DNA of 64,000 nt from a candidate division Kazan bacterium GW2011_GWA1_50_15 (GTDB taxonomy: Bacteria > Patescibacteriota > Kazan-3B-28), in NCBI GenBank assembly GCA_001029795.1, contig CP011216.1:134903-198902 (forward strand), written 5' to 3'. The notes under the pieces are model-generated. The model saw only the letters and a list, made by a program, of their open reading frames with translations. It made no database searches and was not told the DNA's origin. Below, piece after piece: positions 111 through 58,730 of this stretch (its first letter is position 1; every line of letters starts with the position of its first letter). The position numbers and the translations under genes were made by a program.

Positions 111-1022
111 ATGTTAATTTTTTGGCAGAGAATTTTTAGGTCGGCGACGTCCGGGTTCCGGCGCAATGGGTGGCTCAGTTTGGTGGCGGTGTTCATTATG
201 ACCCAGGCGCTGCTGTTGATCAGTATCTTTGCTTCGCTCAATCTGGTGATCGGCGCTTCGATCACAGCTATTAACGAACGGATCGACGTGGCTTTGTTTT
301 TCAAAGAGACCGTAACACAGAGTGAGGCAATGACGCTCAAAACCCAAGCGGAACAGATCGAAGGCGTTACGCAAGTTACCTATGTGTCATCTCAGGACGC
401 GCTGGATAAATTCTTGGCTGACCACCGTAACCGGGGGGCGATCTTAGACGTGGTATCGCGAGACGAAAATTTTCTGCCGGCCAGTTTGGAGATCAAGGTA
501 ACGGACCCTTATCTGATCGAAGGGATCGTGGGCCAGATCATCCGCGGCGATGGCGGCAAACTGATCTCACAAACCAGCCTGGAGGACAACCAGAAATTGA
601 TCGAGAAGTTGCGCAACTTTGGCGGGTTTGTGCAGAGGTCTAGCTTGATCCTGGCTTTGGTACTGATCATCATTGCGCTACTTATCATCTTTAATACGAT
701 CCGCATTACTATTTTTACGCGGCGAGAGGAGATCGAGATCATGAAGCTGGTGGGCGCCACCGATTGGTACATCCGCTGGCCGTTTATTATTGAAGGGATG
801 TTATATGGGGTGATCGCCACGATCTTGTCGTTGGTTTTGTTGTACGTGGGATACTTGGCCTTGGTCAAACCGATGGTAGATAGCTACCTGATCTCGGCTG
901 CCAGTAGCCCCGTGTTCACCCTAGGTTTCTTCATCTTTTTGGCTGCTTTACAGCTGGTGGTGGCGCTGGTGGTGGGCGGAGTCAGCAGTTACTGGGCGAC
1001 ACGTAAACATCTGCACGTATAA
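111..1022 (+). CDS. ftsX: Cell division permease FtsX
   Basis: 303 aa with an N-terminal TM helix, a periplasmic domain and three C-terminal TM helices (FtsX fold); sits directly after the ftsE-like 3' end. Confidence 0.8.
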   Translation: MLIFWQRIFRSATSGFRRNGWLSLVAVFIMTQALLLISIFASLNLVIGASITAINERIDVALFFKETVTQSEAMTLKTQAEQIEGVTQVTYVSSQDALDKFLADHRNRGAILDVVSRDENFLPASLEIKVTDPYLIEGIVGQIIRGDGGKLISQTSLEDNQKLIEKLRNFGGFVQRSSLILALVLIIIALLIIFNTIRITIFTRREEIEIMKLVGATDWYIRWPFIIEGMLYGVIATILSLVLLYVGYLALVKPMVDSYLISAASSPVFTLGFFIFLAALQLVVALVVGGVSSYWATRKHLHV

Positions 1023-1041
1023 AATAATTACAAATCAAAAA

Positions 1042-2214
1042 TTGCGGACGTATTCTATGAAGAGATTACCGATTATTCTGTTGGCGGTCTGGCTGGGGCT
1101 GGCGGGGTTAACGCCCGCCTGGGCCGATTTGTTGAGCGACAAAACTCAAGAACTGCAGAATCTGCAAAAACAGATCGAGCAGCAACAACAGGCTCTTGAT
1201 AAGGCCAAGAACCGGAGCGCTAGTCTAAAAAACCAGATCGATATTCTGGACCAACAGATAAAACTAACCCAGCTGCAGGTTGAAAGACTGGGGGAACAAG
1301 CGGCACAAACAACGGCGAACATTAGCCAGATCAATCGCGATCTGGTGGATGCCGAGGTTCAGATCTACAACAGCAAGCAGGTGTTAAGAGACGCTATTAC
1401 GGAGTCGTATATGCGTCAGCAGACCGGTCTGCTTGAGGTACTGTTGGGGTCATCTAATCTTTCGGACTTTGTTTCCCAGTTGGAGTACGTAACCGCAGTG
1501 GAAAGTCGGATTACTAACACCCTCTCAGTGCTGCAAGAGTTGAATGCGTCGTTGGCCGAGAAAAAAGGTCAGTTAGAGAAAGCCGAGAAAGAGTTGGCTG
1601 AGCTTTTAGCCAGTAAACAGCTAGAGGAGAATAGTCTCACTGTTCAGGTTGGCGCCAAACAGAATCTGTTGCACGATTCGCAGCTGACCGAGGCTGAGTA
1701 TCAAAAAAGACTCCAGGATGCGGCCGCTGAATACGCCCGCGTACAAAACGAGATCGCACAGTTGGCCCGGAATGTACGCAAAGACCAGCTCAACCAAGGT
1801 AAATACACTTTGCAGTGGCCGATCCCATCTCGGATGATCACGGCTGGGTTTAGAGATGCTGATTACTTGGCCAGATTTAAGATCCAACACAACGCTATCG
1901 ATATCGCCACTCCTCAGGGGACGCCGATCCGGGCTGCCGCCGATGCCTTTGTGGCTAAGGTCAAGTTCGACGGCAGTACCAGCTATTCCTATATTGTGCT
2001 GGACCATGGCAACGGGATGGTGACTGTCTACGCTCACGTCAGCGGGGTGTCGGTCAGCGCTGGCCAGTTCGTGCCGGTGGGTTCGGTCATTGGCTCGACC
2101 GGAGGGACACCAGGGACTACGGGAGCTGGCTGGCTTACCACGGGGCCTCATCTGCATTTGGAAGTTTGGTTAGATGGTCAAGCCCGTAGCCCGCTGGCCT
2201 ATCTTGTGGGCTAG
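1042..2214 (+). CDS. M23 (LytM) family peptidase with N-terminal coiled coil (EnvC-like)
   Basis: Signal peptide, a long Q/L/E-rich coiled coil, and a C-terminal M23 domain (HNAIDIATPQGTPIRAA...GPHLHLEV); adjacent to ftsEX. Confidence 0.8.
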   Translation: MRTYSMKRLPIILLAVWLGLAGLTPAWADLLSDKTQELQNLQKQIEQQQQALDKAKNRSASLKNQIDILDQQIKLTQLQVERLGEQAAQTTANISQINRDLVDAEVQIYNSKQVLRDAITESYMRQQTGLLEVLLGSSNLSDFVSQLEYVTAVESRITNTLSVLQELNASLAEKKGQLEKAEKELAELLASKQLEENSLTVQVGAKQNLLHDSQLTEAEYQKRLQDAAAEYARVQNEIAQLARNVRKDQLNQGKYTLQWPIPSRMITAGFRDADYLARFKIQHNAIDIATPQGTPIRAAADAFVAKVKFDGSTSYSYIVLDHGNGMVTVYAHVSGVSVSAGQFVPVGSVIGSTGGTPGTTGAGWLTTGPHLHLEVWLDGQARSPLAYLVG

Positions 2215-2269
2215 GAGGAAATCTCCTACGATGGATGGGTAGTAACTGGGGGTGAGGGAGTTTTAAGTT

Positions 2270-3469
2270 ATGGGTAAACAGGTTGGTTTGTATGCTGCCG
2301 GGGTTGTGCTGCTTTTGGCGGTCTACTTTTTAGGTATGACCTACGGCTACTATGGTCGGGTAAATTTACAAAACTATTCAGCCGTTTTTAAGCAGGAGTT
2401 GATGGGAAGTCGGTTGGGGCAAACTGACTTGGATCTGCTTTGGACCGTGACCGACCTGGTGGACGCCAAGTACATTGGTCGGCCGAACTATCAGGATATG
2501 TTGTATGGGGCCATCCGGGGGGCGGTAACGGCCCTGGGTGACCCGTACACAGTGTTTACTAGTCCTACAGAGAACCAAGAGTTCTTCGCCGCGCTTGATG
2601 GGATCTATGATGGGATCGGAGTAGAGATAGATGTGGTCGGGGGACATCTGCTAGTCATATCTCCTTTGAAGGATTCACCCGCGGATAAGGCAGGATTGTT
2701 GCCGCGCGACGAGGTGCTGGCCATAGATGGTGAGAGCGTTACGGGACTTACTCTGGGCGAAGTGGTCGCGAAGATGAAGGGTCCGGCTGGGACTGTCGTA
2801 CGGCTTACGGTAGGACGCGTTGGAATAAACGAACCATTAGATATCGAGATCCAGCGCGAGACAGTACGCAAACGGAGCGTGGAAGTAACCGTAGATGACA
2901 ATAAGATAGCAGTGGTGGGTATCTTGCGCTTTGCCTCGGATACCGAGACAACTTTTCGGGCGGCGGTAAATGAAGTATTGGCGAAGGGGGCGGTAGGGAT
3001 GGTGTTGGATATGCGTAACAATCCGGGCGGATTCTTGGATGTGGGGGTGAAGGTGGCTAACGAATTTTTGGCTTCGGGCCAGATAGTCGAGGAACGGTTT
3101 AAGGACGGGAAAGTTACCCCGTTCTCGGCTGACGGGTCCGGGAGATTAACTAAATTGCCTGTAGTGGTTTTGGTTAATGGCGGGAGTGCTTCCGCGGCCG
3201 AGATCGTGGCTGGAGCGTTGCAGGATAATCAGCGGGCCAAGATAGCCGGCGAACAGACCTTCGGTAAAGGAAGCGTGCAGGAGGTAGAGGCTTTCCCCGA
3301 CGGGTCCGCTCTGCGGCTCACGGTCGCAAAATGGTATACTCCCAAAGGCCGTTCCATCAGCGATGAAGGGATTAGACCAGATAAGGTGATAGAATGGAGG
3401 TCGGATAGCACGATAGACAATCAGTTGGACGGAGCAAAGCAAGTATTACAAACATTAATCGGTAGATGA
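2270..3469 (+). CDS. ctpA: Carboxy-terminal processing protease (S41, CtpA-like) with PDZ domain
   Basis: TM anchor, PDZ-like segment and an S41 core (VVLVNGGSASAAEIVAGALQD, AKWYTPKG). Ends in a TGA stop. Confidence 0.8.
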   Translation: MGKQVGLYAAGVVLLLAVYFLGMTYGYYGRVNLQNYSAVFKQELMGSRLGQTDLDLLWTVTDLVDAKYIGRPNYQDMLYGAIRGAVTALGDPYTVFTSPTENQEFFAALDGIYDGIGVEIDVVGGHLLVISPLKDSPADKAGLLPRDEVLAIDGESVTGLTLGEVVAKMKGPAGTVVRLTVGRVGINEPLDIEIQRETVRKRSVEVTVDDNKIAVVGILRFASDTETTFRAAVNEVLAKGAVGMVLDMRNNPGGFLDVGVKVANEFLASGQIVEERFKDGKVTPFSADGSGRLTKLPVVVLVNGGSASAAEIVAGALQDNQRAKIAGEQTFGKGSVQEVEAFPDGSALRLTVAKWYTPKGRSISDEGIRPDKVIEWRSDSTIDNQLDGAKQVLQTLIGR

Positions 3470-3478
3470 GATTTTAAC

Positions 3479-3913
3479 GTGGAAGTTATATTTTTACAAA
3501 ATGTGAACGGGGTAGCCCACAAAGGCGACGTTAAGCAGATCAGCGACGGTTACGCACGCAATTTTCTGTTGCCTAATGGGTTAGCCGAGGCGGCGACTCC
3601 GGGTAGAGTGGCAGCGATCAAGGTCGAAGCCGAACATAAGGTAGCCCAACGGGCTGAACGCGGCGCGGAGCTACAGCAGTTGATCGAGGCGTGGGATGGA
3701 CGTGAGATCACTATTGAGGCTAAGGCGAACAAGGCTGGCGGGCTGTTCGCGGCGATCACACCAGAAGTGGTTGCAAAACACCTGAATGGTGAGATTGGCG
3801 CGGAGCAGATCGTGATGCCAGTGCCGATTAAAACGGTGGGGGAGCATACTGTTAAGTTACGGGCTGGCGCGGACGCAATTGCTGCAATGACCGTGATAGT
3901 CAGACCGCTTTAA
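3479..3913 (+). CDS. rplI: 50S ribosomal protein L9
   Basis: MEVIFLQNVNGVAHKGDVKQISDGYARNFLLPNGLAE matches the L9 N-domain; GTG start. Confidence 0.8.
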   Translation: MEVIFLQNVNGVAHKGDVKQISDGYARNFLLPNGLAEAATPGRVAAIKVEAEHKVAQRAERGAELQQLIEAWDGREITIEAKANKAGGLFAAITPEVVAKHLNGEIGAEQIVMPVPIKTVGEHTVKLRAGADAIAAMTVIVRPL

Positions 3914-6302: not shown

Positions 6303-6729
6303 TAATGTTTTTATCGGTGAATATACGCATGTTTTAGACAGCAAGGGCCGGCTTGCTATTCCTGTCAAATTTAAAAACCTGCTGGAGAGGGGCGCGGTAG
6401 TTACCAAGGGTTTAGACGGCTGTCTCTTTCTCTACACCGAGGCCGAGTGGGCTAAGTTGGTGGCGAGGTTGAACCAGATGCCGATATCACAAAGTAACTC
6501 TCGGGCGTTCGCTCGACTGATGCTGGCCGGGGCGATGCCGGTGAGCTTGGACAGCCAGAACCGCATCAACCTTCCTAACTATTTGATCGCTTTTGCTGGG
6601 TTAGGGGGTACAGCAGTATTGGCTGGCTTGATGAACCGATTGGAGATCTGGGACACCAAGAAGTGGGCCAGCTACAAAAAGAAAACCGAGCCGGAATCCG
6701 AAAAGATAGCCGAACAACTGTTCATTTAA
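6286..6729 (+). CDS. mraZ: Division/cell wall cluster transcriptional regulator MraZ
   Basis: FIGEYTHVLDSKGRLAIPVKFK and a second SQNRINLPNYL half (duplicated MraZ fold); GTG start. Confidence 0.85.
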   Translation: MEETVDNVFIGEYTHVLDSKGRLAIPVKFKNLLERGAVVTKGLDGCLFLYTEAEWAKLVARLNQMPISQSNSRAFARLMLAGAMPVSLDSQNRINLPNYLIAFAGLGGTAVLAGLMNRLEIWDTKKWASYKKKTEPESEKIAEQLFI

Positions 6730-6732
6730 ATG

Positions 6733-6926
6733 CCCTCGGAGGGAGAAAACCATAATGGGTTTTCCCCCTTCCGACGCCCCGGCTTGCCGGGGCTGCCTCC
6801 TCCTTTCAAGGAGTTCGCAACCCGAAATAAATTCGGATTGCTCACGAGGGGACAAATATTCATTCGAAAAGAGTTTTGCCACTCCGAGGGAGCCTAAAAT
6901 AAATTCGGATTGCTCACGGGGGATTA
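6733..6926 (+). repeat. Intergenic repeat family 2, copy 1 (with internal partial duplication)
   Basis: About 115 bp nearly identical to 50706-50820 (cctcggagggagaaaacc...ccgacgccccggcttgccgggg...tcgcaacccgaaataaattcggattgctcacg). The last 30 bp are repeated again at 6897-6926. Confidence 0.7.
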
Positions 6927-7983: not shown

Positions 7984-8363
7984 GACGAGGATTCAAACTT
8001 AATCTAAGAAATAAGATCAAGATGGGGCCAATGTCTTTGACTTACCTGGCCGTAATAGCTTTTTTCGCTATTGGTTTTGTCTATGTGTTAACGGTTAATG
8101 TGGTGTCGAATAAGGGCACCACATTGCGTTTATTAGAGTTGGAGAATAAAGGTCTGGTAAGTGAGAATGACCGATTAGAGGTGGAGGCGGCCAGATTGAA
8201 GTCACTGCGGGTAATTGAGGATAACGCTTCCGGCGAAGTGCATGTCGGCGATCTGGAGGCACCCAAAGAAGAGAACCTGCAGCCAGTAGCGATAGTGCCA
8301 AAACTTGTGCCGACGAGAACGCAGCAGTACCTGCCGAGTTATAGTCAGTTAGCGCAACGCTAG
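7980..8363 (+). CDS. ftsL: FtsL-like division protein (TM helix plus coiled coil)
   Basis: 127 aa with one TM helix followed by a coiled-coil segment (LELENKGLVSENDRLEVEAARLKSL); position in the dcw cluster. Confidence 0.5.
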   Translation: MRRGFKLNLRNKIKMGPMSLTYLAVIAFFAIGFVYVLTVNVVSNKGTTLRLLELENKGLVSENDRLEVEAARLKSLRVIEDNASGEVHVGDLEAPKEENLQPVAIVPKLVPTRTQQYLPSYSQLAQR

Positions 8364-8575
8364 GTTTTTTTGAACGCAAGCTGGCGTTCAATCCAGCGCT
8401 ACTTTTGTCTTGCCAAAAGTAGCCAAAAGCGTGGCCCTAGCGGCTCCAGCTCTATTCATTGGCTAAATTGCCGGGTGCTTCCGCCGAACTCCTCTCTAAC
8501 GGTCGTCAAACATGCGGCTCCGCCCCGAGCGATTTAGCTCAATTCAGGACGCGCCTCTGCCGAAGGGCCGGACAA
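8364..8575 (+). repeat. Mosaic intergenic repeat family 1, copy C
   Basis: Two hairpins (8371-8390 tgaacgc/gcgttca; 8398-8423 gctacttttg/caaaagtagc), then a body about 80% identical to 58583-58730, ending in gaagggccg. Confidence 0.7.
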
Positions 8576-8608
8576 GAAAAGGTCAAGGGGTAAGATATAA
8601 TTGAAGGT

Positions 8609-10339
8609 ATGCTAGATAGGGCAACGACATTACAGCTCGAACAACGGTACCGCATAGGGCTAATTAGTACGGCCTTTTTTATTTTGTTCGTGATGGCAGT
8701 AGGCCGTTTGGTGGAACGACAAGTATTTGAACATGGCCACTTTTCTAGATTGGCTAAAGAACAGCATTTGGCCAGTCAGGTGGTCCCGGCTCAGCGAGGC
8801 AAGATATTTACTGAGGAGCGGGATAATGATGAGCTGTACCCGCTGGCGACCAACGTAACCTTGTTCGCGCTAACCGCGGTGCCGTCTCAGGTAACGAGGC
8901 CGGAGTTGGTCGCCAGTAAACTAATGCCCTTTCTGACCGGATCGGGGGTAGAGGAAAGCGAGCTAATAGCTAAACTATCCAGCAAAGCGCAGTACATGCC
9001 TCCCTTGAAACGTAAGATCAGCAAAACTGAGGCCGAGGCTATCGATGCTCTGGATTTGACAGGAGTCTATCTCAGCCAAGAGAAATACCGCTATTCTCCA
9101 GAGGAGACGATGGCTGCACAGGTGCTGGGTTTTGTGAACCGTGATGGTGTGGGGCAGTACGGCTTGGAGGGCTACTTCGATAAAGAGTTGGGCGGGACGG
9201 CCGGTTTCCTCGAAGCAGAGCAAGACACGTTCGGTCGGCAGATCGCTCTAGGTAAACGCGAGTCGGTCAATCCGCAGGACGGTTTGGATATTGTTACCAC
9301 GCTGGACAGGGCGGCGCAGTACTACGTGGATAAGGCGGTTAGAGAAGCGGTGGAGCAACATCAAGCCACCCGAGGGATGGCGATCGTGATGGAGCCCAAA
9401 ACAGGCAAGATCATCGCTATGTCGGCGTATCCAAACTTCGATCCCAACAATTACAACAAGGAAGATATCGCAAGTTTCACCAACCCCAACATCTCGCAGG
9501 TATATGAGCCGGGTTCAGTTTTTAAAGTTATCACCATGGCGGCTGGAATCGATGCGGGGGTGATCGCGCCAAGCACGACTTATACTGACACTGGCCAAGT
9601 TGAGGTGAACGATCGGACGATAAAAAACTCTGAGCCGGGCGCCTTTGGGTCGCAGACTATGACTCAAGTATTGGAAAAGTCGTTGAATACCGGGGCGGTG
9701 TTCGTTATCCAGAAGTTGGGTAAATATCTATTCAATAAATATCTGGGACAGTTTGGGTTCACTACCCCGACCGGAGTGGAGTTGGAAGGCGAGGTGGCCG
9801 CGCATATTAAAAACCCCAAAGGGCTTTCAGATGTGGATTTGGCGACTATGTCGTTTGGGCAAGGTATCGCGGTGACCCCAGTTCAACTGTTGGCTGCCAT
9901 TGGGGCGATCGCTAATGATGGTCGTCTATTGCAGCCTCATATTGTTGATAGGATCCTCTATCCTTCGGGCGCCGTCTCGATCGACCCAACGGTAGTGGGG
10001 CAGGCGATTAGCCCGCAGACGGCTCAGCTAGTTTCGGCGATGATGGTGGGTGTGATCGAGAACGGTCATGGTAAAAGGGCGGGCGTGCCGGGGTATTGGA
10101 TAGCGGGCAAAACCGGTACAGCTCAGATCCCTGGACCGGGTGGGGGCTATCTGGATGGGTTTGGGAATACGATCGGGACTTTTGTAGGGTTCGGTCCGGT
10201 GGATAATCCAAGATTCGTGATGGTCACTCGTATCGATCAACCCAAGGACGTGCAGTTTGCTGAAAGTTCGGCGGCGCCGTTGTTTGGCAGGATCGCTAAG
10301 TTTTTGTTGGACTATTGGCATGTGCCGCCGACAAGGTAA
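8609..10339 (+). CDS. ftsI: Penicillin-binding protein / transpeptidase FtsI (PBP3-like)
   Basis: N-terminal TM anchor, SVFK (SxxK) and KTGTA (KTG) motifs; position in the dcw cluster. Confidence 0.85.
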   Translation: MLDRATTLQLEQRYRIGLISTAFFILFVMAVGRLVERQVFEHGHFSRLAKEQHLASQVVPAQRGKIFTEERDNDELYPLATNVTLFALTAVPSQVTRPELVASKLMPFLTGSGVEESELIAKLSSKAQYMPPLKRKISKTEAEAIDALDLTGVYLSQEKYRYSPEETMAAQVLGFVNRDGVGQYGLEGYFDKELGGTAGFLEAEQDTFGRQIALGKRESVNPQDGLDIVTTLDRAAQYYVDKAVREAVEQHQATRGMAIVMEPKTGKIIAMSAYPNFDPNNYNKEDIASFTNPNISQVYEPGSVFKVITMAAGIDAGVIAPSTTYTDTGQVEVNDRTIKNSEPGAFGSQTMTQVLEKSLNTGAVFVIQKLGKYLFNKYLGQFGFTTPTGVELEGEVAAHIKNPKGLSDVDLATMSFGQGIAVTPVQLLAAIGAIANDGRLLQPHIVDRILYPSGAVSIDPTVVGQAISPQTAQLVSAMMVGVIENGHGKRAGVPGYWIAGKTGTAQIPGPGGGYLDGFGNTIGTFVGFGPVDNPRFVMVTRIDQPKDVQFAESSAAPLFGRIAKFLLDYWHVPPTR

Positions 10340-10342
10340 TTC

Positions 10343-11734
10343 ATGAGGGGAGCACGCGGTATGTTCTCCCCTCATCGGTGGTCAGCAAAAGCTGGCCCTC
10401 GCTCCACTCGGGCTAGCCACCTGCTCCCTACTCCACCTCAGGAGGAGATAGAAGAAACTCTGGTCTGGGGGCGGGTTTTTGCGTATTATGGGAGGGTGAA
10501 AAAGATAGCTCTCAATCTGTTGGTGAGTTTGAGCCGGAGGATCTTGGCCAAGTATCAACCCCGTATCATCGGGGTGACGGGGAGCGTGGGCAAGACCACT
10601 ACCAAAGAAGCCATCTACACCGCTCTGCGCGGGAGCTTTCGCGTGGCGCGGAGTTTGAAAGATGCCAATACCGAATGGGGAGTGACAGCTACGATTATTG
10701 ATCAAGAGTTTTATCCGGTCGGTCGAGATAGTATCGGAAGAGCTAAATTATCGGTCGGTGAACTTATCGGTCTGCTTTATCGGGGGTGCAAGCGATTATT
10801 GGTAAAGGGGGATTATCCCGAGATCCTGATTTTGGAGTTAGCGGCTGAACAAGCGGGTGATATCAAATTTTTTAACCAGTTTTTACAATACGATATCGCG
10901 GTGATTACTAATATCGGTCAGGTGCATTTGGAGTTTTATCGTGACCAGACCGAGCTGACCGCCGAGAAACTAAGCATCGCTGACGGATTAAAACCTAGCG
11001 GGCTGATGGTGTTGAACGGCGACAATGAATTACTAACTGAATTTATTACTACAACTCGGTTGCGGCGAACAACTTTCGGTTGGGATGAAGCCAATCAATA
11101 TAATATCCACTTACGGGATATTGGCGTTGATGGTTTGCGGTATGAAGTTAATACGCCCGATGGCGGCGTGGAGGTGGTGTTGGGATTTGGCCGACAGCTG
11201 GTCGATGCCGCTGCTGTTGCCGTGGCGGTGGGTCGGGAGTTGGGTATACCTCTGGCGCAGTTGGGTCAGCGGTTGACAGGTTTGGCTTCGCCAGCTGGCC
11301 GGTTTGAGATGTGGCAGCTCCGACGCGGGATAACTTTGGTCAATGATGCCTACAACGCTAATCCTGACTCGATGAAGTCAGCCCTGACTAGTTTGCAGGA
11401 CATCGCCTCAGTCTCGCCCCCAGGGGCTACACGTAGAAGAGTGGCGATCCTGGGCGGGATGAGAGAGTTGGGGTTGGCGCACGAGACGGCCCATCTTGAT
11501 GTCGGTCGATTCCTGCGCGACAAAGTGGATCTACTGGTGGCAGTGGGGGCTGATGGCGGGCTGATGGCGGACGCCGCTGGCTTGTCGGCCGATCAAGTTG
11601 TTCAGGTAGATGATCCGAGCCAAGTAGATTTTTCCAAATTTTTGCAGGATAATGATGCCGTGTTAGTCAAAGCCTCGCGCAGTTTTGGTTTGGATGTTGT
11701 GGCACAAGCAATTCGGCAGAGGATAGGACAATAG
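10343..11734 (+). CDS. murF: UDP-MurNAc-pentapeptide synthetase MurF (true start probably downstream of the ORF start)
   Basis: GVTGSVGKTTTKE P-loop, Mur ligase middle and C-terminal domains (LVKASRSFGL). The first ~35 residues of the ORF look non-native. Confidence 0.7.
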   Translation: MRGARGMFSPHRWSAKAGPRSTRASHLLPTPPQEEIEETLVWGRVFAYYGRVKKIALNLLVSLSRRILAKYQPRIIGVTGSVGKTTTKEAIYTALRGSFRVARSLKDANTEWGVTATIIDQEFYPVGRDSIGRAKLSVGELIGLLYRGCKRLLVKGDYPEILILELAAEQAGDIKFFNQFLQYDIAVITNIGQVHLEFYRDQTELTAEKLSIADGLKPSGLMVLNGDNELLTEFITTTRLRRTTFGWDEANQYNIHLRDIGVDGLRYEVNTPDGGVEVVLGFGRQLVDAAAVAVAVGRELGIPLAQLGQRLTGLASPAGRFEMWQLRRGITLVNDAYNANPDSMKSALTSLQDIASVSPPGATRRRVAILGGMRELGLAHETAHLDVGRFLRDKVDLLVAVGADGGLMADAAGLSADQVVQVDDPSQVDFSKFLQDNDAVLVKASRSFGLDVVAQAIRQRIGQ

Positions 11735-12766
11735 ATGGAAGAACTGCTGCTACAAGTTGTTTTGCTGAGAGTTTTTATCCTGGCGGCGCTGGGTTTCTTT
11801 GTGGCTATTTTAGCTACGCCGTTTTGGACTAACTTTTTGTATAAATACAAATTTTGGAAACAGCCTAAAGAAGAAACCATCTATGGGACCCAAGCGACGG
11901 TCTACCAACAGCTACATGCCGAGAAACATAAACGGCTAGTGCCGACTATGGCTGGCGTATTGTTCTGGGTGCTCGTCGTGTTACTGTCCTTAAGGTTTAA
12001 TTTGACCCGCTCGCAGACCTATTTGCCGCTCTTCTCGCTGGTCGCGGTCGGGGTGATCGGAGCGGTCGATGACTGGTTTAATATCCGCGGCATTGGCGGG
12101 ATCAAGGGGATTCGGGCTCGGCAGAAGATGGTTTGGCTGCTTGCCATGGCGGGTCTGGGGGCTTGGTGGTTTTACTTTAAATTAGGGCAGAACAGTATTC
12201 ATCTGCCAGGAGTAGGGGACTTCCTTGTGGGATGGTGGTATATCCCGATCTTTATATTTATCATTCTGGCAACCGCTAACGCGTTCAATATTACTGATGG
12301 GTTGGATGGTCTATCCGGCGGGCTGTTCATTATTGCTTACGGCGCTTATGGCATTTTGGCGATGGCCAATAACCAGATCAGTCTTGCTATCTTCTGTACC
12401 ACGGTGGTAGGGGTATTGTTAGCCTATCTTTGGTTTAATGTTTACCCGGCAAGATTTTTTGGCGGCGACACATATTCGTTAGCCTTTGGAGCTACTCTAG
12501 GAGTCGTGGCTTTGATGATCAGTAATGGCATCGGTTTGGCCGTGTTGCCCCTAATAGCGTTCGTTCCGCTCGTTGAAACGCTGTCGGTCATCCTGCAGCT
12601 GACCTACCGCAAGATCTATAAAAGGAAATTGTTTTTAGTCGCTCCGATCCATCATCACTTCGAAGCCATTGGTTGGCCGGAAACAAAAGTAACTATGCGG
12701 TTTTGGATCATTGGGGCGGTGTTCGCGGTGATCGGGTTGGTGATAGGATTAGTCGGCGCAGGGTAA
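11735..12766 (+). CDS. mraY: Phospho-N-acetylmuramoyl-pentapeptide transferase MraY
   Basis: Polytopic membrane protein with NITDGLDGLSGG and the HHHFE motif. Confidence 0.85.
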   Translation: MEELLLQVVLLRVFILAALGFFVAILATPFWTNFLYKYKFWKQPKEETIYGTQATVYQQLHAEKHKRLVPTMAGVLFWVLVVLLSLRFNLTRSQTYLPLFSLVAVGVIGAVDDWFNIRGIGGIKGIRARQKMVWLLAMAGLGAWWFYFKLGQNSIHLPGVGDFLVGWWYIPIFIFIILATANAFNITDGLDGLSGGLFIIAYGAYGILAMANNQISLAIFCTTVVGVLLAYLWFNVYPARFFGGDTYSLAFGATLGVVALMISNGIGLAVLPLIAFVPLVETLSVILQLTYRKIYKRKLFLVAPIHHHFEAIGWPETKVTMRFWIIGAVFAVIGLVIGLVGAG

Positions 12767-12772
12767 TTTTTT

Positions 12773-13046
12773 GTAGCGCCTGCGTCGCGCTACACCGACG
12801 GTTACTTTCCTCTTGGGGAAAGTAACCAAAGCCGCTCCGCCAGTCGCTCTGGCTGTGAATAGAAAGCAAAACTAGCTTTCTGGCTTTCGGCGAACTTCTC
12901 CTCGCTGACTCGTTGTCAAACAACGCCTGCGCTGCGCTAGTTTTGCTAATTCACAACGCCAGATCTCCAATGGCGGAAGGGGAGAGGGGAAGGGACGTAG
13001 TTTGCTCGATGGGGGTGGAGGTAGACGACTCTTCGCTGAAGGGCCG
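12773..13046 (+). repeat. Mosaic intergenic repeat family 1, copy A
   Basis: Hairpin 1 is gtagcgc/gcgctac (12773-12793). Hairpin 2 (ggttactttcc-tcttgg-ggaaagtaacc, 12800-12827) is identical to the one at 58553-58580. The body is a diverged relative of copies B and C and ends in ctgaagggccg. Confidence 0.65.
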
Positions 13047-13057
13047 ATTACTTCTAG

Positions 13058-13088
13058 CCCATAATTCTTGATTCATAATTCGTTATTC
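13058..13088 (+). promoter_or_regulatory. AT-rich CATAATTC-N6-CATAATTC motif, copy 1
   Basis: cccataattcttgattcataattcgttattc; three further copies lie upstream of ftsW and ybaB and, inverted, upstream of murC. Confidence 0.4.
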
Positions 13089-13167
13089 TATTCTCCAGAT
13101 GCTTGTTCGATTGACCTAGAGCGGATTTTTTGGTATACCAGGATTATCTTGGACCTTGAGGTGATAG

Positions 13168-13380
13168 ATGTCACAAGCGAAGTGCGAGGTCGAAGGTTGC
13201 CGGTCAAGGGCAAACCGGAGCTGTGTAAAGTGCGGACGTCGAGTTTGTCCCGAGCATATGGCGATCTCCGAAGGTAGGCATATTGAAGTGTGTGATGTGT
13301 GCGTGCAAGGCGCATCTGGAGTACAAGCTAAACCGCCAGATCGGCGCCACAGAGATCAACGAGGAGGTGATCGACGTTGA
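13168..13380 (+). CDS. Small Cys-rich zinc-ribbon-like protein
   Basis: 70 aa with CEVEGC...CVKCGRRVCPEH...CDVC; strong SD (gaggtga) upstream. The stop overlaps the next ORF's TTG start. Confidence 0.35.
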   Translation: MSQAKCEVEGCRSRANRSCVKCGRRVCPEHMAISEGRHIEVCDVCVQGASGVQAKPPDRRHRDQRGGDRR

Positions 13381-13958
13381 AGTGGTTTAAGTTGAGTGTG
13401 GCAGTGTTGTTATGGATGATCGTCCCAGCGTTGGCACGGGCTCAATTAGAACCGAGCAAGCACCTGGAAGGGTATCTTGGCTATCGTTTCGGGATGGTCC
13501 CGACTCAGATCCAAGATATTGCCGCAGGCCGGCTGGTTCGGGATGTACACAGCGGTCTATCTGAAGTAGTGGACTACATGACCGACCAGGGTCGTCTGAC
13601 TAGTCCAGACGGTAGCGTAAAGGACCTCCCGGTCGGTCTGTGTCTATCATTCTACCGAGGTCGCTTAGCTGGCATTACGATCCAGATACCCGAACAGACA
13701 GACCTAGCAGCGGCAACTAGGCTAGTGGGGGCGCTCAGAACAAGCTTACTCGCGTATTACGATGCCTCGCTAGTCCAGCGTGACGATTGGCTGCCCGATC
13801 GACACCAAGCAGTTATTATGCTATACGACTCGGCGAACGGGAACGCGTTTTGGCTGTTGTGGGATAAGGAGACCGTTCTGGTTTGTTCTATGACGGGTGA
13901 GTTGATCATGCTCGATCCGGAATGCCAGGATCTCTTACCGGAGGATCCAGCGAATTGA
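13377..13958 (+). CDS. Secreted hypothetical protein
   Basis: N-terminal signal peptide (MKWFKLSVAVLLWMIVPALARAQ); no recognisable domain. Confidence 0.4.
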   Translation: MKWFKLSVAVLLWMIVPALARAQLEPSKHLEGYLGYRFGMVPTQIQDIAAGRLVRDVHSGLSEVVDYMTDQGRLTSPDGSVKDLPVGLCLSFYRGRLAGITIQIPEQTDLAAATRLVGALRTSLLAYYDASLVQRDDWLPDRHQAVIMLYDSANGNAFWLLWDKETVLVCSMTGELIMLDPECQDLLPEDPAN

Positions 13959-13977
13959 CATCGATCGAGACCGAACA

Positions 13978-14673
13978 TTGAATCGCTCTGCTACTATGGC
14001 GGAGCGATTTTTATTATTCCAAGATGTCACCGAGGTTTATTGTACAATGGGTGCGAGGGGGGAAGTGCACCTTCTTAATTTGACAGAGGCGGTGGCAGCT
14101 GTGGCAAAACCAGGAGAGATTTGGAGCCAGGAAGCCGACCTGCGCTTAGATTTCATGCATGAGATAGGCATCAGACCAGCCAAGATGCCCGAGCTGTTGC
14201 GATGGAGTCTGGGGGTTCGAGTAACTCGCCGTCAGGTTGAGCTCAGGATCAAAAAGCTCAGGCAGGCGCCGCCGGCATCTCCAAGTATCACTAGCGGGAT
14301 GTTAGCGCTGGTCCCAGAGAACATTCCCGATAGTGTGATCAAGAGCGCGCGTCGGCAGTGCCGTTTGCGGCACAGCGGCCGATGTATGGTCTGTGGGACA
14401 AAAAGGAACTTTACGGTTCACCACAAGGTTCCGTTAACTTACGGCGGCAGTTGGGCGCAGGAGAACTTGGATGGAGTCTGTGAACATTGCCACAAGGCCA
14501 TCCACAACATTAACGGCGCTTACGAGGAACTGGAGAGTGAAGCGCAACGTCAGCGGGTGGACGGCTACAGAACTATTATCGAGAACGCCCGCAAGCTGTA
14601 TCGGCAGCAGTGTCCGGTAAAATCACCTTTGGAGATACCTGGCCCAGTAACCGCTCAGCCGGTTCAGGCCTAG
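13978..14673 (+). CDS. HNH endonuclease domain protein (unknown N-domain)
   Basis: C-terminal CMVCGTKRNFTVHHKVPLTYGGSWAQENLDGVCEHCHKAIHN is a canonical HNH/His-Me finger. Confidence 0.6.
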   Translation: MNRSATMAERFLLFQDVTEVYCTMGARGEVHLLNLTEAVAAVAKPGEIWSQEADLRLDFMHEIGIRPAKMPELLRWSLGVRVTRRQVELRIKKLRQAPPASPSITSGMLALVPENIPDSVIKSARRQCRLRHSGRCMVCGTKRNFTVHHKVPLTYGGSWAQENLDGVCEHCHKAIHNINGAYEELESEAQRQRVDGYRTIIENARKLYRQQCPVKSPLEIPGPVTAQPVQA

Positions 14674-14764
14674 GCCGTCATGAGGGAGCTTATCAGCTCC
14701 CTTTTTTATAGGGAGAGACTAGGGATGTTAAGATATAGAAGCTAGATCGTTAATCGTAAGTTAT

Positions 14765-15700: not shown

Positions 15701-15766
15701 GGCAGTGAAAAGTTACAAGTGACAGGTGACAAGTTATGGTGACCTTCGGTTCCCCGGGACTCATCT

Positions 15767-16406: not shown

Positions 16407-17780
16407 ATGGCTAAAGTTAGGTTCCAGGGTAAAAAAACAGCAGTAATCGGCCTCGGACGTGAAGGGATCGAGTTGGTCAGGTGGCTGCGGCGTCAGGGAG
16501 CACTGGTGACCGTCTTGGACCGAGTTCCGGCCAGCAAACTGGGGGTGCAGTACAAAGAGGCTAAACATTTGGGCGCGGAGTTTCGCTTGGGTGACCAATA
16601 TTTGAGTAACCTCACTGATTTCGAAGTGGTTTTCCGCAGCCCCGGGGTGCCGCTGCAGTTAATAGAATTTAAGCGAGCTATCAAAGCCGGAGTAGCGTTC
16701 TCGAGTACTATCCAATTATTTTTGGAGCTGGCGCCGGCGCGGATCATCGGGGTGACAGGGACGAAGGGAAAATCTACTACGACCAGTTTGATCCATCATC
16801 TACTGAAGGGTGGCCAGCGGTGGGTATTTTTGGCCGGGAATATCGGGACCTCACCCCTGCCCCTGCTCACTAAGATTAAATCGGGCGATACGGTGGTACT
16901 GGAGCTGTCGAGTTTTCAGCTGGAGGATCTGACGAGAAGCCCCGATATCGCAGTGATGCTGAATGTTGTGCCGGAACACCTGGACCGGCACAAAACTTTT
17001 AGTAAATATTTGGCGGCCAAACAAAATATTTATACGCATCAAGGTAAGGCGGATTGGTTAATCGCCAGCTATGATTTTGTGCCGACCAAGGAGGCATTGA
17101 GGCGGGCGCGTGGCAAAACTTTGCCGATTTCGACCCGGCAGATCCTGCGTAAAGGCGTGTATCTCTCTAAAGGCGAAATAGTTTATCGGCACTGGCGGAG
17201 CGGTCGGCGGCAGGTGATCACCTCCGCTACCGGTCTGAAACTGATGGGGGAACATAATCTTCAAAATGTGTTGCCGGCGATCGCGACCGCCTTGGTTAGT
17301 AATGTGCCGGTTAAAACCATCGCCAAGAAACTGCGCAGCTTCAAACCCCTCAAGCATCGCATCGAGCTGGTGCGACGGATTGGCGATGTCAGTTTTATCA
17401 ATGATTCGTTGGGGACTACGCCGGAGGCGGCCGCGGCCGCTATCTTGGCGTTCCCCAACTTGCCCAAAGCTATCATTGTCGGCGGAGTGTACAAGGGCGG
17501 TGATATCAGCGCGTTGGCCAAAACCGCGGCCACCGGCAATGTGCGGATGGCAGTATTGATCGGTGGTTCCGCTAAAAAATTTCAGGCGGCGTTCAAACGG
17601 TTTGCTCCCAAAGTTTCCACTAAACTGGCTAAGACATTTCCACAGGCGGTCAAGGAAGCCATCGCGGCGGTGCGGACTCACGGGTTGGTGATGCTGACTC
17701 CGGCCTGCGCCAGTTTTGATATGTTCAAAGACGCGTATGATAGGGGTGACCAATTTAAAAAAATAGTTAATCACTTGTAG
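16407..17780 (+). CDS. murD: UDP-N-acetylmuramoylalanine--D-glutamate ligase MurD
   Basis: VIGLGREG Rossmann N-terminus, GVTGTKGKSTTT P-loop and Mur ligase C-domain. Confidence 0.8.
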   Translation: MAKVRFQGKKTAVIGLGREGIELVRWLRRQGALVTVLDRVPASKLGVQYKEAKHLGAEFRLGDQYLSNLTDFEVVFRSPGVPLQLIEFKRAIKAGVAFSSTIQLFLELAPARIIGVTGTKGKSTTTSLIHHLLKGGQRWVFLAGNIGTSPLPLLTKIKSGDTVVLELSSFQLEDLTRSPDIAVMLNVVPEHLDRHKTFSKYLAAKQNIYTHQGKADWLIASYDFVPTKEALRRARGKTLPISTRQILRKGVYLSKGEIVYRHWRSGRRQVITSATGLKLMGEHNLQNVLPAIATALVSNVPVKTIAKKLRSFKPLKHRIELVRRIGDVSFINDSLGTTPEAAAAAILAFPNLPKAIIVGGVYKGGDISALAKTAATGNVRMAVLIGGSAKKFQAAFKRFAPKVSTKLAKTFPQAVKEAIAAVRTHGLVMLTPACASFDMFKDAYDRGDQFKKIVNHL

Positions 17781-17787
17781 TCAGTTG

Positions 17788-17817
17788 TCCATTATTCGTG
17801 ATTCATAATTCATTATT
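17788..17817 (+). promoter_or_regulatory. AT-rich CATAATTC-N6-CATAATTC motif, copy 2 (10 bp upstream of ftsW)
   Basis: ccattattcgtgattcataattcattattc. Confidence 0.4.
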
Positions 17818-17826
17818 CTAGCTCTA

Positions 17827-19014: not shown

Positions 19015-20050
19015 GGCGCCTGATACCGAACTGCTATATATTGGTTCACGAGTATCATCTGACGCCAAGCTGGTTGAAGCCGCTGGTCTGCCGTTCAGAG
19101 CCATAACAACTGGCAAGTTGCGGCGCTATTGGTCGTGGCAGAATGTGGTAGATGTTTTTAAGTTCCTGACCGGTCTCGTCCAGGCTGGCAAAATCTTGCG
19201 CGAGTTCCGCCCCGATGTGGTATTTGCCAAGGGTGGTTATGTGGCCCTGCCGGTAGTACTGGCGGCTAAACGACAGCATATCCCAGTAGTGGTGCATGAA
19301 TCCGATAGTCGGTTAGGGTTGGCTAATCGGTTAGCTATTCCATCTGCTAGCAAAGTGGCGGTATCTTTTCCGATCGATGAGTATATCCGGCAGCAACCTA
19401 ATTTGGGGCGATATCGCGCCAAATTTATCTACACCGGGCTGCCCCTGCCAGATTCACTTCTACGCGATTCAGGTAGGCCGGTATTTAGCAATCAACGGCC
19501 GACTATCTTGGTGACGGGTGGTTCGCAGGGGGCCCAAGCGATCAACCAGGCGGTCTGGGAGATATTGCCGGAGCTATTGGCGAAATATAATCTAGTGCAT
19601 CAGGTTGGGGCGAACGGTCTGACGGAGGCTGAGCGGCACGTCCAGGTGTTACCACCGGGGTTGGGAGAGTATTATCGCCCATTCGGTTTTGATGCCGACT
19701 TCTATCAACAAGCATTGCACGCCGCTGATCTAGTGGTTGCTAGGGCCGGTTCGATGGTATTTGAGCTGCAGGCCCTGGCCAAGCCGGCGATCCTAATCCC
19801 TCTGCCGCACTCAGCCGGCGGTCATCAACATCGCAACGCCAAGTTCTTGGTTGAGCATGATGCGGCAGTAGCGATTGACCAAAGACAGCTAACCGCCAAT
19901 GGATTGATGGCGGTGATAGAGCAGCTGATGAGTGACCAAACTCTGCGCGAGCGGTTAGCCCAGAATTTGTCAACTTTAGGCAAGGTCAACGTAGCTGCCA
20001 GCCGGACGCTGGCCGATCTAGTTATAGCCACTGCTCAACATGTTAGGTAA
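18935..20050 (+). CDS. murG: UDP-GlcNAc:lipid I GlcNAc transferase MurG
   Basis: MKILLAGGGTGGHV N-terminus and GT-B C-domain. Confidence 0.85.
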   Translation: MKILLAGGGTGGHVIPTLAVAAQLESKAPDTELLYIGSRVSSDAKLVEAAGLPFRAITTGKLRRYWSWQNVVDVFKFLTGLVQAGKILREFRPDVVFAKGGYVALPVVLAAKRQHIPVVVHESDSRLGLANRLAIPSASKVAVSFPIDEYIRQQPNLGRYRAKFIYTGLPLPDSLLRDSGRPVFSNQRPTILVTGGSQGAQAINQAVWEILPELLAKYNLVHQVGANGLTEAERHVQVLPPGLGEYYRPFGFDADFYQQALHAADLVVARAGSMVFELQALAKPAILIPLPHSAGGHQHRNAKFLVEHDAAVAIDQRQLTANGLMAVIEQLMSDQTLRERLAQNLSTLGKVNVAASRTLADLVIATAQHVR

Positions 20051-25088: not shown

Positions 25089-25136
25089 TCCTTCGTTTTT
25101 AACTTATCACTTGTCACCTATAACTTTTCACTGACC

Positions 25137-27784: not shown

Positions 27785-28039
27785 CACTTTTGAGCAAAGA
27801 ATTTGTCCATGCGTTCAAACTTGAAGCAAGACGCCAAGAGGGGTTTACTAATTCCTTCTGGCGGCAGTTAGCGGTTATCTTGGTGGCTATCGCCATTATC
27901 AACTGGGTAGGACCCAAGATCATTCTCTACGGAACAAACATCACCGCGAACTGGACCGGAATGTAATAAAAAGCGCGGAACGGCGCTTTACCAATTGCTC
28001 TGGCTTGTCCAGAATCTTTTATTTATCTAAGCGCCTGCG

Positions 28040-28290
28040 CGGCGCTTAACCCGCAATTATCTTTGCCACCTCATTTGCTTGTCCAAACGGGGTGGCGCCC
28101 CAAAAGACACCCCACTCACCGATTGCTAGCCAAACAGAAAAATTGACCTTTCTGGACTTAACGCAAACTTGCCCCGACTTTCAGCCGGGGCTTTGAACAA
28201 TGCTATCTATACCGGGCAATTTTTCTATTGGCGGACGCAATCGGCTCGAAGGGGTAGCGGAGAAATGGACGACCCTCCACTGACGGGCCA
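28040..28290 (+). repeat. Mosaic intergenic repeat, copy D (related to 42800-43075)
   Basis: Shares tctttgccacc...ccaaacgg-ggtggcgcc-caaaag...caccccgctcac, gacctttctgg and caatttttctattggcggacgcaa blocks with copy E. Confidence 0.6.
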
Positions 28291-28366
28291 GTAAAGAAAT
28301 AAAGAGAAGTCTCGACTTGCCATCTCTCTTGCTAACCTGCTGACCAGCTGTGGTCTGTGCTAAAAT

Positions 28367-42786: not shown

Positions 42787-42799
42787 TTTTTCCAAGTGT

Positions 42800-43075
42800 T
42801 CCAGCCTCGCTTGACCGGGCGTTTCTTTTTGCCACCATTTTGATTGCCCAAAACGGTGGCGCCAAAAGGGCACCCCGCTCACAAATCATGAGCCAATTTA
42901 AGCAAAATTGGCCTTTCTGGTTTTTCCGCCAGCTGGCGGACGCAAACTCGTTCCCCGACAAGTCGGGGTCCTCAAACATGCTGGACCAAGCGGCCAATTT
43001 TTCTATTGGCTTGCATAATTTGCTCGACGGGTCCCATAACACAAGACAGCCCTCCTCCAATGGCGGAGGGAAGAA
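42800..43075 (+). repeat. Mosaic intergenic repeat, copy E (related to 28040-28290)
   Basis: See copy D. It also carries sub-blocks shared with family 1: tcaaacatgc, and tccaatggcggaggg (compare A: tccaatggcggaagg). Confidence 0.6.
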
Positions 43076-43132: not shown

Positions 43133-43139
43133 GAAAGAT

Positions 43140-58467: not shown

Positions 58468-58523
58468 TTTTTTGCCTTAGGTTTTTTTGTCATTCCGGAT
58501 TTAGCTCGGAATCCTTTTTGTTT

Positions 58524-58730
58524 TTCAAGGGTCTGAGCGACCCTTGGACCGCGGTTACTTTCCTCTTGGGGAAAGTAACCAAAGCCGTGGCCCTGTTCAC
58601 TCGGCCTATTCATTGGCTAAATCGATGGGTGCTCCCGCCGAACTCGTCCCGGCTAGCCGGGACTCAAACATGCGGCTCCGCCCCAAGCGATTTAGCTCAA
58701 TTCAAGACGGCCTCGTTCCAAAGGGCCGTA
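58524..58730 (+). repeat. Mosaic intergenic repeat family 1, copy B
   Basis: Hairpin 1 is agggtc/gaccct (58526-58546). Hairpin 2 (58553-58580) is identical to copy A. The body is about 80% identical to copy C. Confidence 0.7.

Follow-up and report, generated by a model that had tools for sequence, protein, structure and literature searches.

A family of structured intergenic repeats in a candidate division Kazan genome, with a hairpin head that recurs in at least five bacterial phyla

The DNA described here is a 64,000-nucleotide stretch of the candidate division Kazan bacterium GW2011_GWA1_50_15 (contig CP011216.1, positions 134,903 to 198,902), referred to below as the window. Its genes, as called and annotated with Pfam, are compactly arranged and nearly all on the + strand, and five of the gaps between them are occupied by copies of a structured, non-coding repeat of 210 to 280 bp, each of which fills the space between a stop codon and the next gene. 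All five copies lie on the + strand, and the family accounts for 1,263 of the 64,000 window bases (approximately 2%). Three copies, named here the ftsL, mraY and trmD copies, have a canonical two-hairpin head, and two divergent ones, copies D and E, have a remodelled second hairpin. An earlier reading of the letters alone (the original prediction) had placed five such repeats in the few long intergenic regions of an otherwise compact genome, and all five were found there and are homologous. On the comparisons given below, we assign the loci to an unnamed, widely distributed family of structured intergenic repeats that extends beyond this genome.

In the head, a T-rich leader is followed by two GC-rich helices (S1 and S2), a conserved hairpin of 10 to 11 bp with a CUUG-containing loop (hairpin 2), and an A-rich tail ending in (C/G)CG. 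The body that follows is a closed set of several helices and ends in GAAGGGCC or CAATGGCGG. The ftsL copy (8364..8575, +) begins with a T-run at 8365-8371, followed by S1 (8371-8377/8384-8390), S2 (8380-8384/8393-8397), hairpin 2 (8398-8423, with the gctacttttg stem variant and the loop TCTTGC), the tail CAAAAGCG (8424-8431) and a body at 8432-8571 with the 3' end GAAGGGCCGG. In the mraY copy (12767..13046, +), S1 lies at 12772-12779/12787-12794, S2 at 12783-12787/12796-12800, hairpin 2 at 12800-12827 and the tail at 12828-12834; its body, designated B-type, extends to 13046 and contains three 3' modules (..CTCCAATGGCGG, ..GCTCGATGGGGG, ..GCTGAAGGGCCG). The trmD copy (58519..58730, +) is situated between trmD and a diversity-generating retroelement (DGR), with S1 at 58526-58533/58539-58546, hairpin 2 at 58553-58580, the tail at 58581-58587 and an A-type body that ends in AAAGGGCCG at 58728. 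The original prediction, which labelled the mraY, trmD and ftsL copies A, B and C (at 12773, 58524 and 8364), was accurate in its description of these three. The arms of hairpin 1 keep their pairing (tgaacgc/gcgttca, gtagcgc/gcgctac and agggtc/gaccct), hairpin 2 is identical in the mraY and trmD copies and variant in the ftsL copy, and all three end in aagggccg (8564-8570, 13040-13046 and 58722-58728 for ftsL, mraY and trmD, respectively).

Copy D (28018..28295, +) follows the gene for a 424-amino-acid secreted protein. It contains S1 (28028-28035/28041-28048), a remodelled hairpin 2 (28066-28096; GCCACC..TTTG-CTTGTC-CAAA..GGTGGC), the tail CCCCAAAAG (28098-28106) and a body of the type common to copies D and E that ends in GACGGGCC at 28289. 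Copy E (42795..43075, +), which follows a DUF5671 gene, has S1 at 42793-42798/42808-42813, a remodelled hairpin 2 at 42831-42861, the tail GCCAAAAGG at 42861-42869 and a body with an extra hairpin that ends in CTCCAATGGCGGAGGG at 43070. When aligned with two loci of related genomes, L045 and L063, which bear canonical heads on the same body type, copies D and E were found to retain S1, S2 and the A-rich tail (CCAAAAG). Their hairpin 2 keeps the TTTG/CAAA upper stem and the CTTG loop, and the lower stem GGTTAC/GTAACC has become GCCACC/GGTGGC. Copy D is syntenic with L045 307-550, in the gap between the genes for the secreted protein and a PPIase. The two had been proposed to form a second subfamily, at 28040-28290 and 42800-43075, that reuses blocks of the first. 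The alignments identify them as divergent members of one family rather than as a separate one. The associated idea of modular shuffling is plausible, given that the L045 site combines a canonical head with a D-type body and that the same head is joined to unrelated bodies across phyla.

A covariance model of the head scored the ftsL, mraY and trmD copies at 78.6, 83.4 and 79.2 bits, respectively, copy D at 21.8 bits (E 4e-4) and copy E weakly, at 9.5 bits (E 1.9); copy E is placed in the family because it aligns with copy D at 72% and has body blocks in common with it. The 28-nucleotide hairpin-2 pattern TACTTTNNTCTTGNNNAAAGTANCCAAA matched the window three times and 100 shuffled sequences not once, even with three mismatches allowed. 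No sixth copy was detected in the window with two nhmmer profiles or with the head covariance model run with its filters off. The ftsL and mraY copies, the two that were compared in this way, are identical across five independent assemblies of the same organism and are therefore not assembly artefacts.

Folding of single copies gave z-scores relative to shuffled sequences of −3.95 and −5.95 for two canonical copies (the latter for the trmD copy), −4.15 for copy D and −3.72 for copy E. The structure was then evaluated on two alignments. Alignment A3 comprises twelve copies with A-type bodies from the window and from related genomes of the Candidate Phyla Radiation (CPR); of the 38 pairs that RNAalifold predicted for it, 21 show compensatory changes. 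With the closing stem added (44 pairs), 94.5% of the cells were paired, compared with 82.3% in shuffles and 31-49% in slid controls, and 21 of the 44 pairs were compensatory; the covariation score of 0.392 (0.160 in shuffles) was matched by none of 500 shuffles. In alignment A4, an ungapped set of 23 heads, 96.1% of the cells were paired compared with 75.4% in shuffles (0 of 500), and 12 of 18 pairs showed compensatory changes. Conserved unpaired motifs (RAACTC ... CTCAAACA) are common to the CPR and Xanthomonadales copies, and local 3' hairpins such as CCCTTCACTGAAGGG were recognized by eye. The argument of the original prediction, that variation which preserves pairing in hairpin 1 points to a structural constraint, is upheld by this covariation and by the conservation of syntenic copies far above that of synonymous sites. 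We thus regard the repeats, as judged from their substitution patterns, as a structured family under structural constraint and not as neutral junk.

The first hairpin itself resolved into two overlapping helices, each of which covaries. S1, the hairpin originally described, is 6 to 10 bp long and occurs in approximately 20 different sequences among 26 hairpins from 25 copies. S2 forms between the 3' portion of the S1 loop and the linker ahead of hairpin 2 (for example, GCTGG/CCAGC, CGTCG/CGACG or AACG/CGTT), and all five of its pairs in A4 are compensatory. Given that S1 and S2 overlap by 1 to 2 nucleotides and are connected by a loop of only 1 to 3 nucleotides, they would be mutually exclusive alternatives, and the same geometry rules out a classical H-type pseudoknot. 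A further dependence links the loop of hairpin 2 to the tail. Among 87 distinct head variants from several phyla, the base after the TCTTG loop covaries with the third-last base of the tail (G:C in 70, C:G in 13, T:C in 3 and C:C in 1), and the resulting three-pair helix is 100% paired in A4. The length of the A-run in the tail also tracks that of the T-run in the hairpin-2 stem, whose foot occurs in the variants GTAAC, GTAGC, GTATC, GTGGC and GCGGG. A tertiary contact in RNA, an alternative helix or binding by a protein that recognises them may underlie the covariation of loop and tail and that of run lengths.

A −10 box for the next gene follows both the ftsL copy and copy E; for the latter, the promoter is TTGACA-17-TATAAT at 43105-43133. 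In a relative that lacks the element (L122), only 20 nucleotides separate the ftsL stop codon from the ftsI start, and they contain TATAAT; the element therefore sits exactly between stop codon and promoter. In both genomes, the ftsI start is preceded by TATAAT and only 8 nucleotides (window 8594-8611; L122 7021-7037), an arrangement that suggests leaderless or near-leaderless transcripts. Across the CPR loci, the upstream open reading frame (ORF) is co-oriented with the element in 18 of 20 cases, and ten stop codons lie 27 to 44 nucleotides before hairpin 2. Several CPR copies are found between convergent genes, and one (L105) adjoins the start of a divergent gene and has a terminator after it. 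Promoter-like −10 boxes follow the 3' end of the element. GC skew at the CPR loci is positive in the orientation of the element, a bias inseparable from that of gene orientation, the CPR genes themselves being strongly co-oriented; no such bias was apparent in 81 other loci. In Proteobacteria, with genes called by GC content at the third codon position, the strands of the upstream and downstream genes relative to the element were (+,+) in 11 cases, (+,−) in 13, (−,−) in 13 and (−,+) in 2. Divergent promoter gaps are thus clearly avoided, and there is no preferred orientation. The same avoidance of divergent gaps has been described for intergenic repeats of Pseudomonas (PMC2718517).

Comparison with relatives revealed both turnover and conservation of individual copies. 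The Kazan contig METB01000001.1 encodes proteins 88% (MraY), 83% (FtsI) and 76% (RsmH) identical to those of the window, a relationship that places the window in the Kazan group of the CPR, and the ftsL and mraY sites are occupied in the window, in METB01 and in L120 (MraY identity of approximately 87-88% for these relatives). Counterparts of the ftsL copy are located at L112 2968-3170 (METB01) and L120 5845-6047, and those of the mraY copy at L053 168-375 and L120 11045-11252. Between ftsI and murE, METB01 and L120 each have an additional copy, at a position without a copy in the window. No copy occupies these sites in the relatives whose MraY is 79%, 76% or 71% identical, the gaps in L122 being 20, 3 and 7 nucleotides, and the lineage at 79% has copies elsewhere (L011, L020, L029, L103, L105). 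Copies present in close and absent in remoter relatives have therefore been gained or lost, and their positions change over genus-to-family distances, in the manner expected of inserted DNA. The flanks at possible empty sites are diverged or rearranged to an extent that precludes a precise comparison of boundaries, and an apparently missing copy in L006 proved to be a run of N rather than an empty site. At the window position corresponding to the extra copy of METB01 and L120, the segment 10343-10460, which contains the first ~39 codons of the listed murE ORF, is without an equivalent in the Kazan homolog and includes a 10-bp hairpin (ATGAGGGGAG..CTCCCCTCAT); other gene callers start murE later, and the segment is probably a non-coding spacer.

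Where copies are retained, they are conserved. Orthologous copies are 73-78% identical, compared with 33-54% at the four-fold sites of ftsI, mraY, rsmH and dnaB, and they differ by compensated pairs in S1 and S2, as in S1 of the ftsL copy, which reads TGAACGC/GCGTTCA in the window and TGACCGT/ACGGTCA in L112. Both the excess identity and the compensated pairs indicate, to the extent that alignments can, selection on each resident copy in place. Copies within the genome are 65-79% identical to one another.

The occurrence of the head beyond this lineage was assessed with a 28-nucleotide pattern of 22 specified bases, covering hairpin 2 and the A-rich tail, in 185,579 species-representative genomes (596 Gb). 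At least 111 exact matches were listed, compared with approximately 0.07 expected by our own arithmetic, and they fall in at least five phyla. Carriers among the matches listed include Pseudomonas (putida group), Xanthomonas, Lysobacter, Pseudoxanthomonas, Stenotrophomonas, Trinickia, Mucilaginibacter and other Bacteroidota, gut Acutalibacteraceae (Firmicutes), and metagenome-assembled genomes (MAGs) of Kazan, Patescibacteria and 'Saccharibacteria'. Carriers usually have several copies, and the distribution is patchy. Many matches in Pseudomonas and Acutalibacteraceae lie at contig ends, and copies there are therefore similar enough to break assemblies. A GC-rich hairpin is present directly 5' of the conserved hairpin in every lineage, and the bodies differ between lineages, with the same head joined to unrelated bodies across phyla. 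Xanthomonadales and an unclassified MAG (L048) have the CPR body plan, with a closing helix and the junction RAACTC-[hairpin]-CTCARACA. Pseudomonas copies are approximately 330 nucleotides long and flanked by inverted hexamer or heptamer microsatellites. These arrays were observed on both sides, for example as (GATCTT)n, (GCTCTT)n/(AAGAGC)n or (GGCTTTT)n in L009, L041, L083 and others. Only two loci, L083 and L025 (Bacteroidota), showed copies arranged as head-to-head doublets.

Searches of databases and of the literature gave the family no name. At the window elements, no Rfam 15 family reached its gathering threshold (the window yielded only tRNA-Gln), nothing was reported there in E-value mode, and the ftsL copy searched alone gave nothing. 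For 17 related loci, the same collection returned only TwoAYGGAY (RF01731), in the body of Pseudomonas copies and on the strand opposite to that of the head (46.7 bits; threshold, 43); neither the window nor the Xanthomonas, Bacteroidota and Firmicutes copies contained this motif. In L083, it occurs at 269-334 (+) and 709-774 (−). A plasmid collection contained no match to a window copy or a Pseudomonas copy (blastn, distant mode), and viral contigs yielded 0 matches to the head pattern. A full-text search for the hairpin string, as DNA or as RNA, returned no paper, the hairpin is absent from the repeat consensus files of the P. fluorescens genome paper, and keyword searches on CPR or Xanthomonadaceae repeats yielded nothing specific to the family. 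An all-against-all blastp comparison of ORFs within 3.5 kb of 117 pattern matches revealed no recurrent neighbour protein, only spurious ORFs across the repeat.

With regard to the means of spread, the original prediction had suggested elements resembling MITEs (miniature transposable elements with inverted repeats). Their multiple copies, gain and loss, and avoidance of divergent gaps agree with this suggestion, and the absence of terminal inverted repeats, target duplications and a transposase does not. The longest inverted k-mers between the flanks are 5 to 7 nucleotides, within chance, and the T-rich leader and purine-rich trailer are only loosely complementary. Direct k-mers of 5 to 6 nucleotides give no target-site duplication above chance, the chance of sharing a 5-mer being 0.80 and a 6-mer 0.34. 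No transposase family, HUH gene or Y1_Tnp domain was present among the called and Pfam-annotated genes of the 64 kb.

The evidence on whether the element acts as RNA or as DNA is divided. The CUUG loop, the A/C-rich unpaired segments of the + strand, the sense orientation in CPR genomes, the two alternative covarying helices, the loop-tail covariation and the terminator-like combination of S2 (or hairpin 1) with a U-rich arm all favour RNA, whereas the neutral orientation in Proteobacteria and the rarity of G.U pairs favour DNA. The opposite strand folds 9.6 kcal/mol better on average, and shuffles shift by a similar amount because the + strand is C-rich (C>G); assignment of the strand by folding energy, being confounded by composition, was therefore dropped. 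No promoter-like site was detected in 8250-13450, which includes the ftsL and mraY copies (0 compared with 4.5 expected). A terminator scan flagged S2 with GCTACTTTTG or GTTACTTTCC at 8380-8397 and 12783-12800, with an interrupted U-tract and a stem of only 4 to 6 bp.

A DGR cassette, made up of target gene, template repeat and reverse transcriptase, directly adjoins the 3' side of an element in four related genomes. Three chromosomal sites are involved: after trmD in the window, as the original prediction had noted, after mraY in METB01 (L053) and L120, and after a His_Phos gene beside a decayed copy in L121. The window cassette has its variable repeat at 59381-59501, its template repeat at 59836-59956 and its reverse transcriptase at 60375-61418; those of the relatives extend over ~830-3785 (L053), 11648-14692 (L120) and 17190-20478 (L121). 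A promoter, TTGACTGGG..N..TA(T/G)(G/T)(T/A)T, precedes the DGR target gene in both the window and L121, and a perfect (CT)10.5 run occupies 60331-60351, just 5' of the reverse-transcriptase gene of the window. Upstream of trmD, a 32-nucleotide palindrome (GCACTAC.TTGAACGGCCGTTCA..GTAGTGC) at 57136-57167 and 57639-57670 flanks a PaaX_M-like gene, and L121 has a similar hairpin, TTGAACGGCCGTTCAA, at 17676-17712, in the interval that separates its decayed element from its DGR.

Other repeats share the gaps of this genome. A second, unrelated repeat, GC-rich and with several hairpins but without an Rfam match, is found at 6725-6846 (the mraZ-rsmH gap) and 50698-50818 (the gap between an S1/HHH, NusA-like gene and infB), with a further piece at 6897-6922; the two are 91% identical over 100 nucleotides. 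Many of the small gaps immediately ahead of gene starts are filled by short tandem heptamer arrays, for example (CATAATT)n, (ATGAATT)n, (ACTTATC)n and (AGTGACA)n (13060-13088, 15704-15734, 17790-17818, 20643-20668, 25102-25132 and 29155-29183 in the window). Arrays of the same kind follow elements in Kazan loci (L112 5722-5750; L096 after 2407), and other heptamer or octamer arrays occupy the ftsL-ftsI gap of relatives (L121, L123).

The explanation that we favour, and hold only tentatively, is that the family is a non-autonomous mobile repeat that behaves like REP/BIME sequences and whose resident copies have been retained as structured 3'-end modules of transcription units. Such a repeat, of the REP, BIME, BOX or ERIC kind, would settle in tail-side gaps between transcription units. 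Given that inverted termini and target duplications are lacking, its mobilisation would resemble that of hairpin-ended single-strand elements (HUH-type) more than that of DDE-type MITEs. In the Kazan group, purifying selection would have kept resident copies in sense orientation between the stop codon and the next promoter, a position in which they are probably transcribed as the 3' end of the upstream mRNA. The folded RNA could then mark and insulate the transcript end in two ways: the GC-rich hairpin S2 (or hairpin 1) with the U-rich 5' arm of hairpin 2 might function as a weak intrinsic-terminator-like signal, and the compact fold might block 3' exonucleases.

Several observations weigh against this explanation. 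The unpaired motifs, the S1/S2 alternative and the loop-tail covariation are not needed by a mere stabiliser. The proximity to stop codons may be simply a result of very short intergenic gaps, and an orientation in Proteobacteria that is neutral with respect to both genes and GC skew does not easily fit a role as strand-specific RNA throughout the family. In the A3 helices, G.U pairs occur about as seldom as A.C mismatches (approximately 10 and 8, respectively), unlike in typical structured RNAs, and the opposite strand, once its composition is taken into account, folds no worse. A proper U-run terminator is lacking, and no U-run follows the 3' motif in the five window copies. The conservation of orthologs could partly reflect conversion between copies, given that the ftsL copy is as close to its paralog, the trmD copy (79%), as to its ortholog (78%). 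The closest paralogs in the window being 79% identical, there has been no recent burst here. Finally, neither the window genes and flanks nor the neighbour proteins disclosed a transposase, inverted termini or a target duplication, so that the case for mobility is drawn entirely from the distribution.

The complexity of the conserved architecture, with its covarying helices, unpaired motifs, CUUG loop and loop-tail covariation, would also suit independent small-RNA genes, that is, multi-copy structured RNAs read from either strand and acting in trans, for example by protein sequestration. Purifying selection on resident copies is compatible with this possibility, as are the z-scores of the opposite strand of window copies, which are equal or better, and the L105 copy, which cannot be the 3' untranslated region of the divergent gene whose start it adjoins. 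The Pseudomonas relatives, moreover, carry TwoAYGGAY, a proposed CsrA-binding small RNA (PMC4333381), although that motif is missing from the window, Xanthomonas, Bacteroidota and Firmicutes copies. We nevertheless consider small-RNA genes unlikely: promoter-like sites are lacking around the ftsL and mraY copies, no terminator closes the elements, half of the CPR copies begin within ~10 nucleotides of a stop codon, G.U is not enriched over A.C, and within-genome identities of 65-79% are unusual for a trans-acting RNA with a single partner. The symmetry of the constraint, with G.U about as rare as A.C, sits more easily with a purely selfish single-strand DNA element of the hairpin-ended kind (IS91/ISCR-like, IS200/IS605-like or REP-RAYT-like) whose folds are read by an HUH-type enzyme and which has no host function. 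Such an element would account for the patchy cross-phylum distribution, the near-identical copies in some genomes, the lack of inverted termini and target duplication, and the gene-neutral orientation in Proteobacteria; the head, moreover, has two subterminal palindromes, the tetranucleotides at the S1 base recall IS91 junctions (PMC13181058), and one conserved end with variable 'cargo' resembles one-ended rolling-circle capture. Selfish selection does not, however, preserve immobile copies, and old syntenic copies here remain 73-78% identical, with compensatory changes, where synonymous sites are saturated. The whole body architecture and the junction motif are common to CPR and Xanthomonadales, no HUH gene is found among the window genes, orientation shows no bias relative to GC skew in Proteobacteria, and the tetranucleotide match amounts to four bases in copies that are not independent. 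We therefore find a purely selfish element doubtful.

The original prediction had also raised recombination or insertion hot-spots at the DNA level, with the elements serving as landing pads for cassettes such as the DGR or as substrates for recombination between copies. The recurrence of the DGR directly 3' of an element, in four genomes and at three sites, is the only piece of that proposal to find support, together with the mosaic combinations of head and body. Four of the five window copies have no adjacent cassette, however, one element per ~5-13 kb would produce some adjacency by chance, the elements that flank DGRs are of different subtypes, and the conserved fold is left unexplained, all of which renders a hot-spot role very improbable. 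A bolder interpretation, and in our judgement quite an unlikely one, is that the head is a portable module read by a single conserved machinery across at least five phyla. The family would then represent a new class of mobile structured element, as RNA or single-stranded DNA, in which pairing of the S1 flank (CAAG/GAAC) with an internal guide mediates target recognition and S1/S2 acts as a switch.

Ultra-small CPR genomes are thought to hold almost no dispensable DNA. That about 2% of the window belongs to one folded family, better conserved than synonymous sites, points to a role in the control of transcript ends or in genome organisation. Interspersed repeats of bacteria are usually lineage-specific, and conservation of the sequence of a hairpin and tail from Pseudomonas to gut Firmicutes to CPR is unusual; it suggests either an element that spreads horizontally with great success by way of some mobilisation system or a host factor held in common. 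Culturable carriers (the group of P. mosselii, P. guariconensis and P. sichuanensis, Xanthomonas hortorum and Lysobacter) render the family experimentally accessible.

As a kind of element, namely the REP/BIME/BOX-like repeat, the family is of a known type, whereas its cross-phylum head, S1/S2 alternative and loop-tail covariation match no family found. Several other identities were dropped on inspection: a small conserved ORF (its ATG is not preserved, and substitutions compensate one another instead of being synonymous); an integron attC site, an IHF site, and operator palindromes of LexA or other regulators; an RNase P minihelix (variant heads do not keep the CCA); and an IS110 bridge RNA or a TnpB/IscB guide RNA (no recombinase or nuclease gene is adjacent). 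TwoAYGGAY, a motif of two neighbouring hairpins whose loops read AYGGAY, enclosed by a closing stem, scores above threshold in the Pseudomonas members, and its reported range of gamma-Proteobacteria, Clostridiales and the human gut (PMC2864571) overlaps that of the head. It corresponds, however, to only ~66 nucleotides of the Pseudomonas body, on the opposite strand, and not to the elements of the other lineages.

Elements of the IS91 family have two subterminal palindromes at oriIS and one at terIS, generate no target duplication, carry CTTG/GTTC/CTCG tetranucleotides at their junctions, form circular single-strand intermediates and capture adjacent DNA in a one-ended manner (PMC13181058). 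Our repeats resemble IS91/ISCR and IS200/IS605-derived elements in having subterminal hairpins without inverted termini or target duplication, a strand-specific architecture, and a conserved end joined to variable internal sequence. Their anatomy, with a pair of subterminal palindromes at one end and one hairpin at the opposite end, is like that of hairpin-ended single-strand elements. The tetranucleotide at the S1 base, which reads CAAG in 11 of the 26 S1 hairpins and GAAC in 3 (GAGC, CGAG and TAAG also occurring), may be set beside the IS91 targets CTTG/GTTC as a resemblance, among copies that share ancestry. Unlike these elements, the repeats have no Y1/Y2 transposase near any copy examined, and they possess a conserved covarying body that such elements do not need.

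BOX, ERIC/IRU, Correia/NEMIS and bcr1 repeats are likewise modular, non-coding, stably folded intergenic sequences of 100-300 bp that can alter the stability or termination of neighbouring transcripts, but they have terminal inverted repeats and usually target duplications, neither of which exceeds chance here, and they are restricted to a genus or family, whereas the present head occurs in at least five phyla. REP/BIME and REPIN-RAYT systems differ in comprising palindromes of 20-40 bp or simple doublets rather than a multi-helix body of 210-330 bp, and REP families are lineage-specific. As a rule, the GTAG/CGTC tag of REP and REPIN sequences is not found in the repeats described here, only some hairpin-2 variants reading GTAGC, and no RAYT gene was seen among the called genes of the 64 kb. 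The likeness to these systems is nonetheless broad: both are multi-copy extragenic palindromic repeats that lie after genes and between convergent ones and rarely between divergent ones (PMC2718517), and both show mosaic organisation and long vertical persistence with compensatory changes, with roles proposed in the protection of mRNA 3' ends or in termination.

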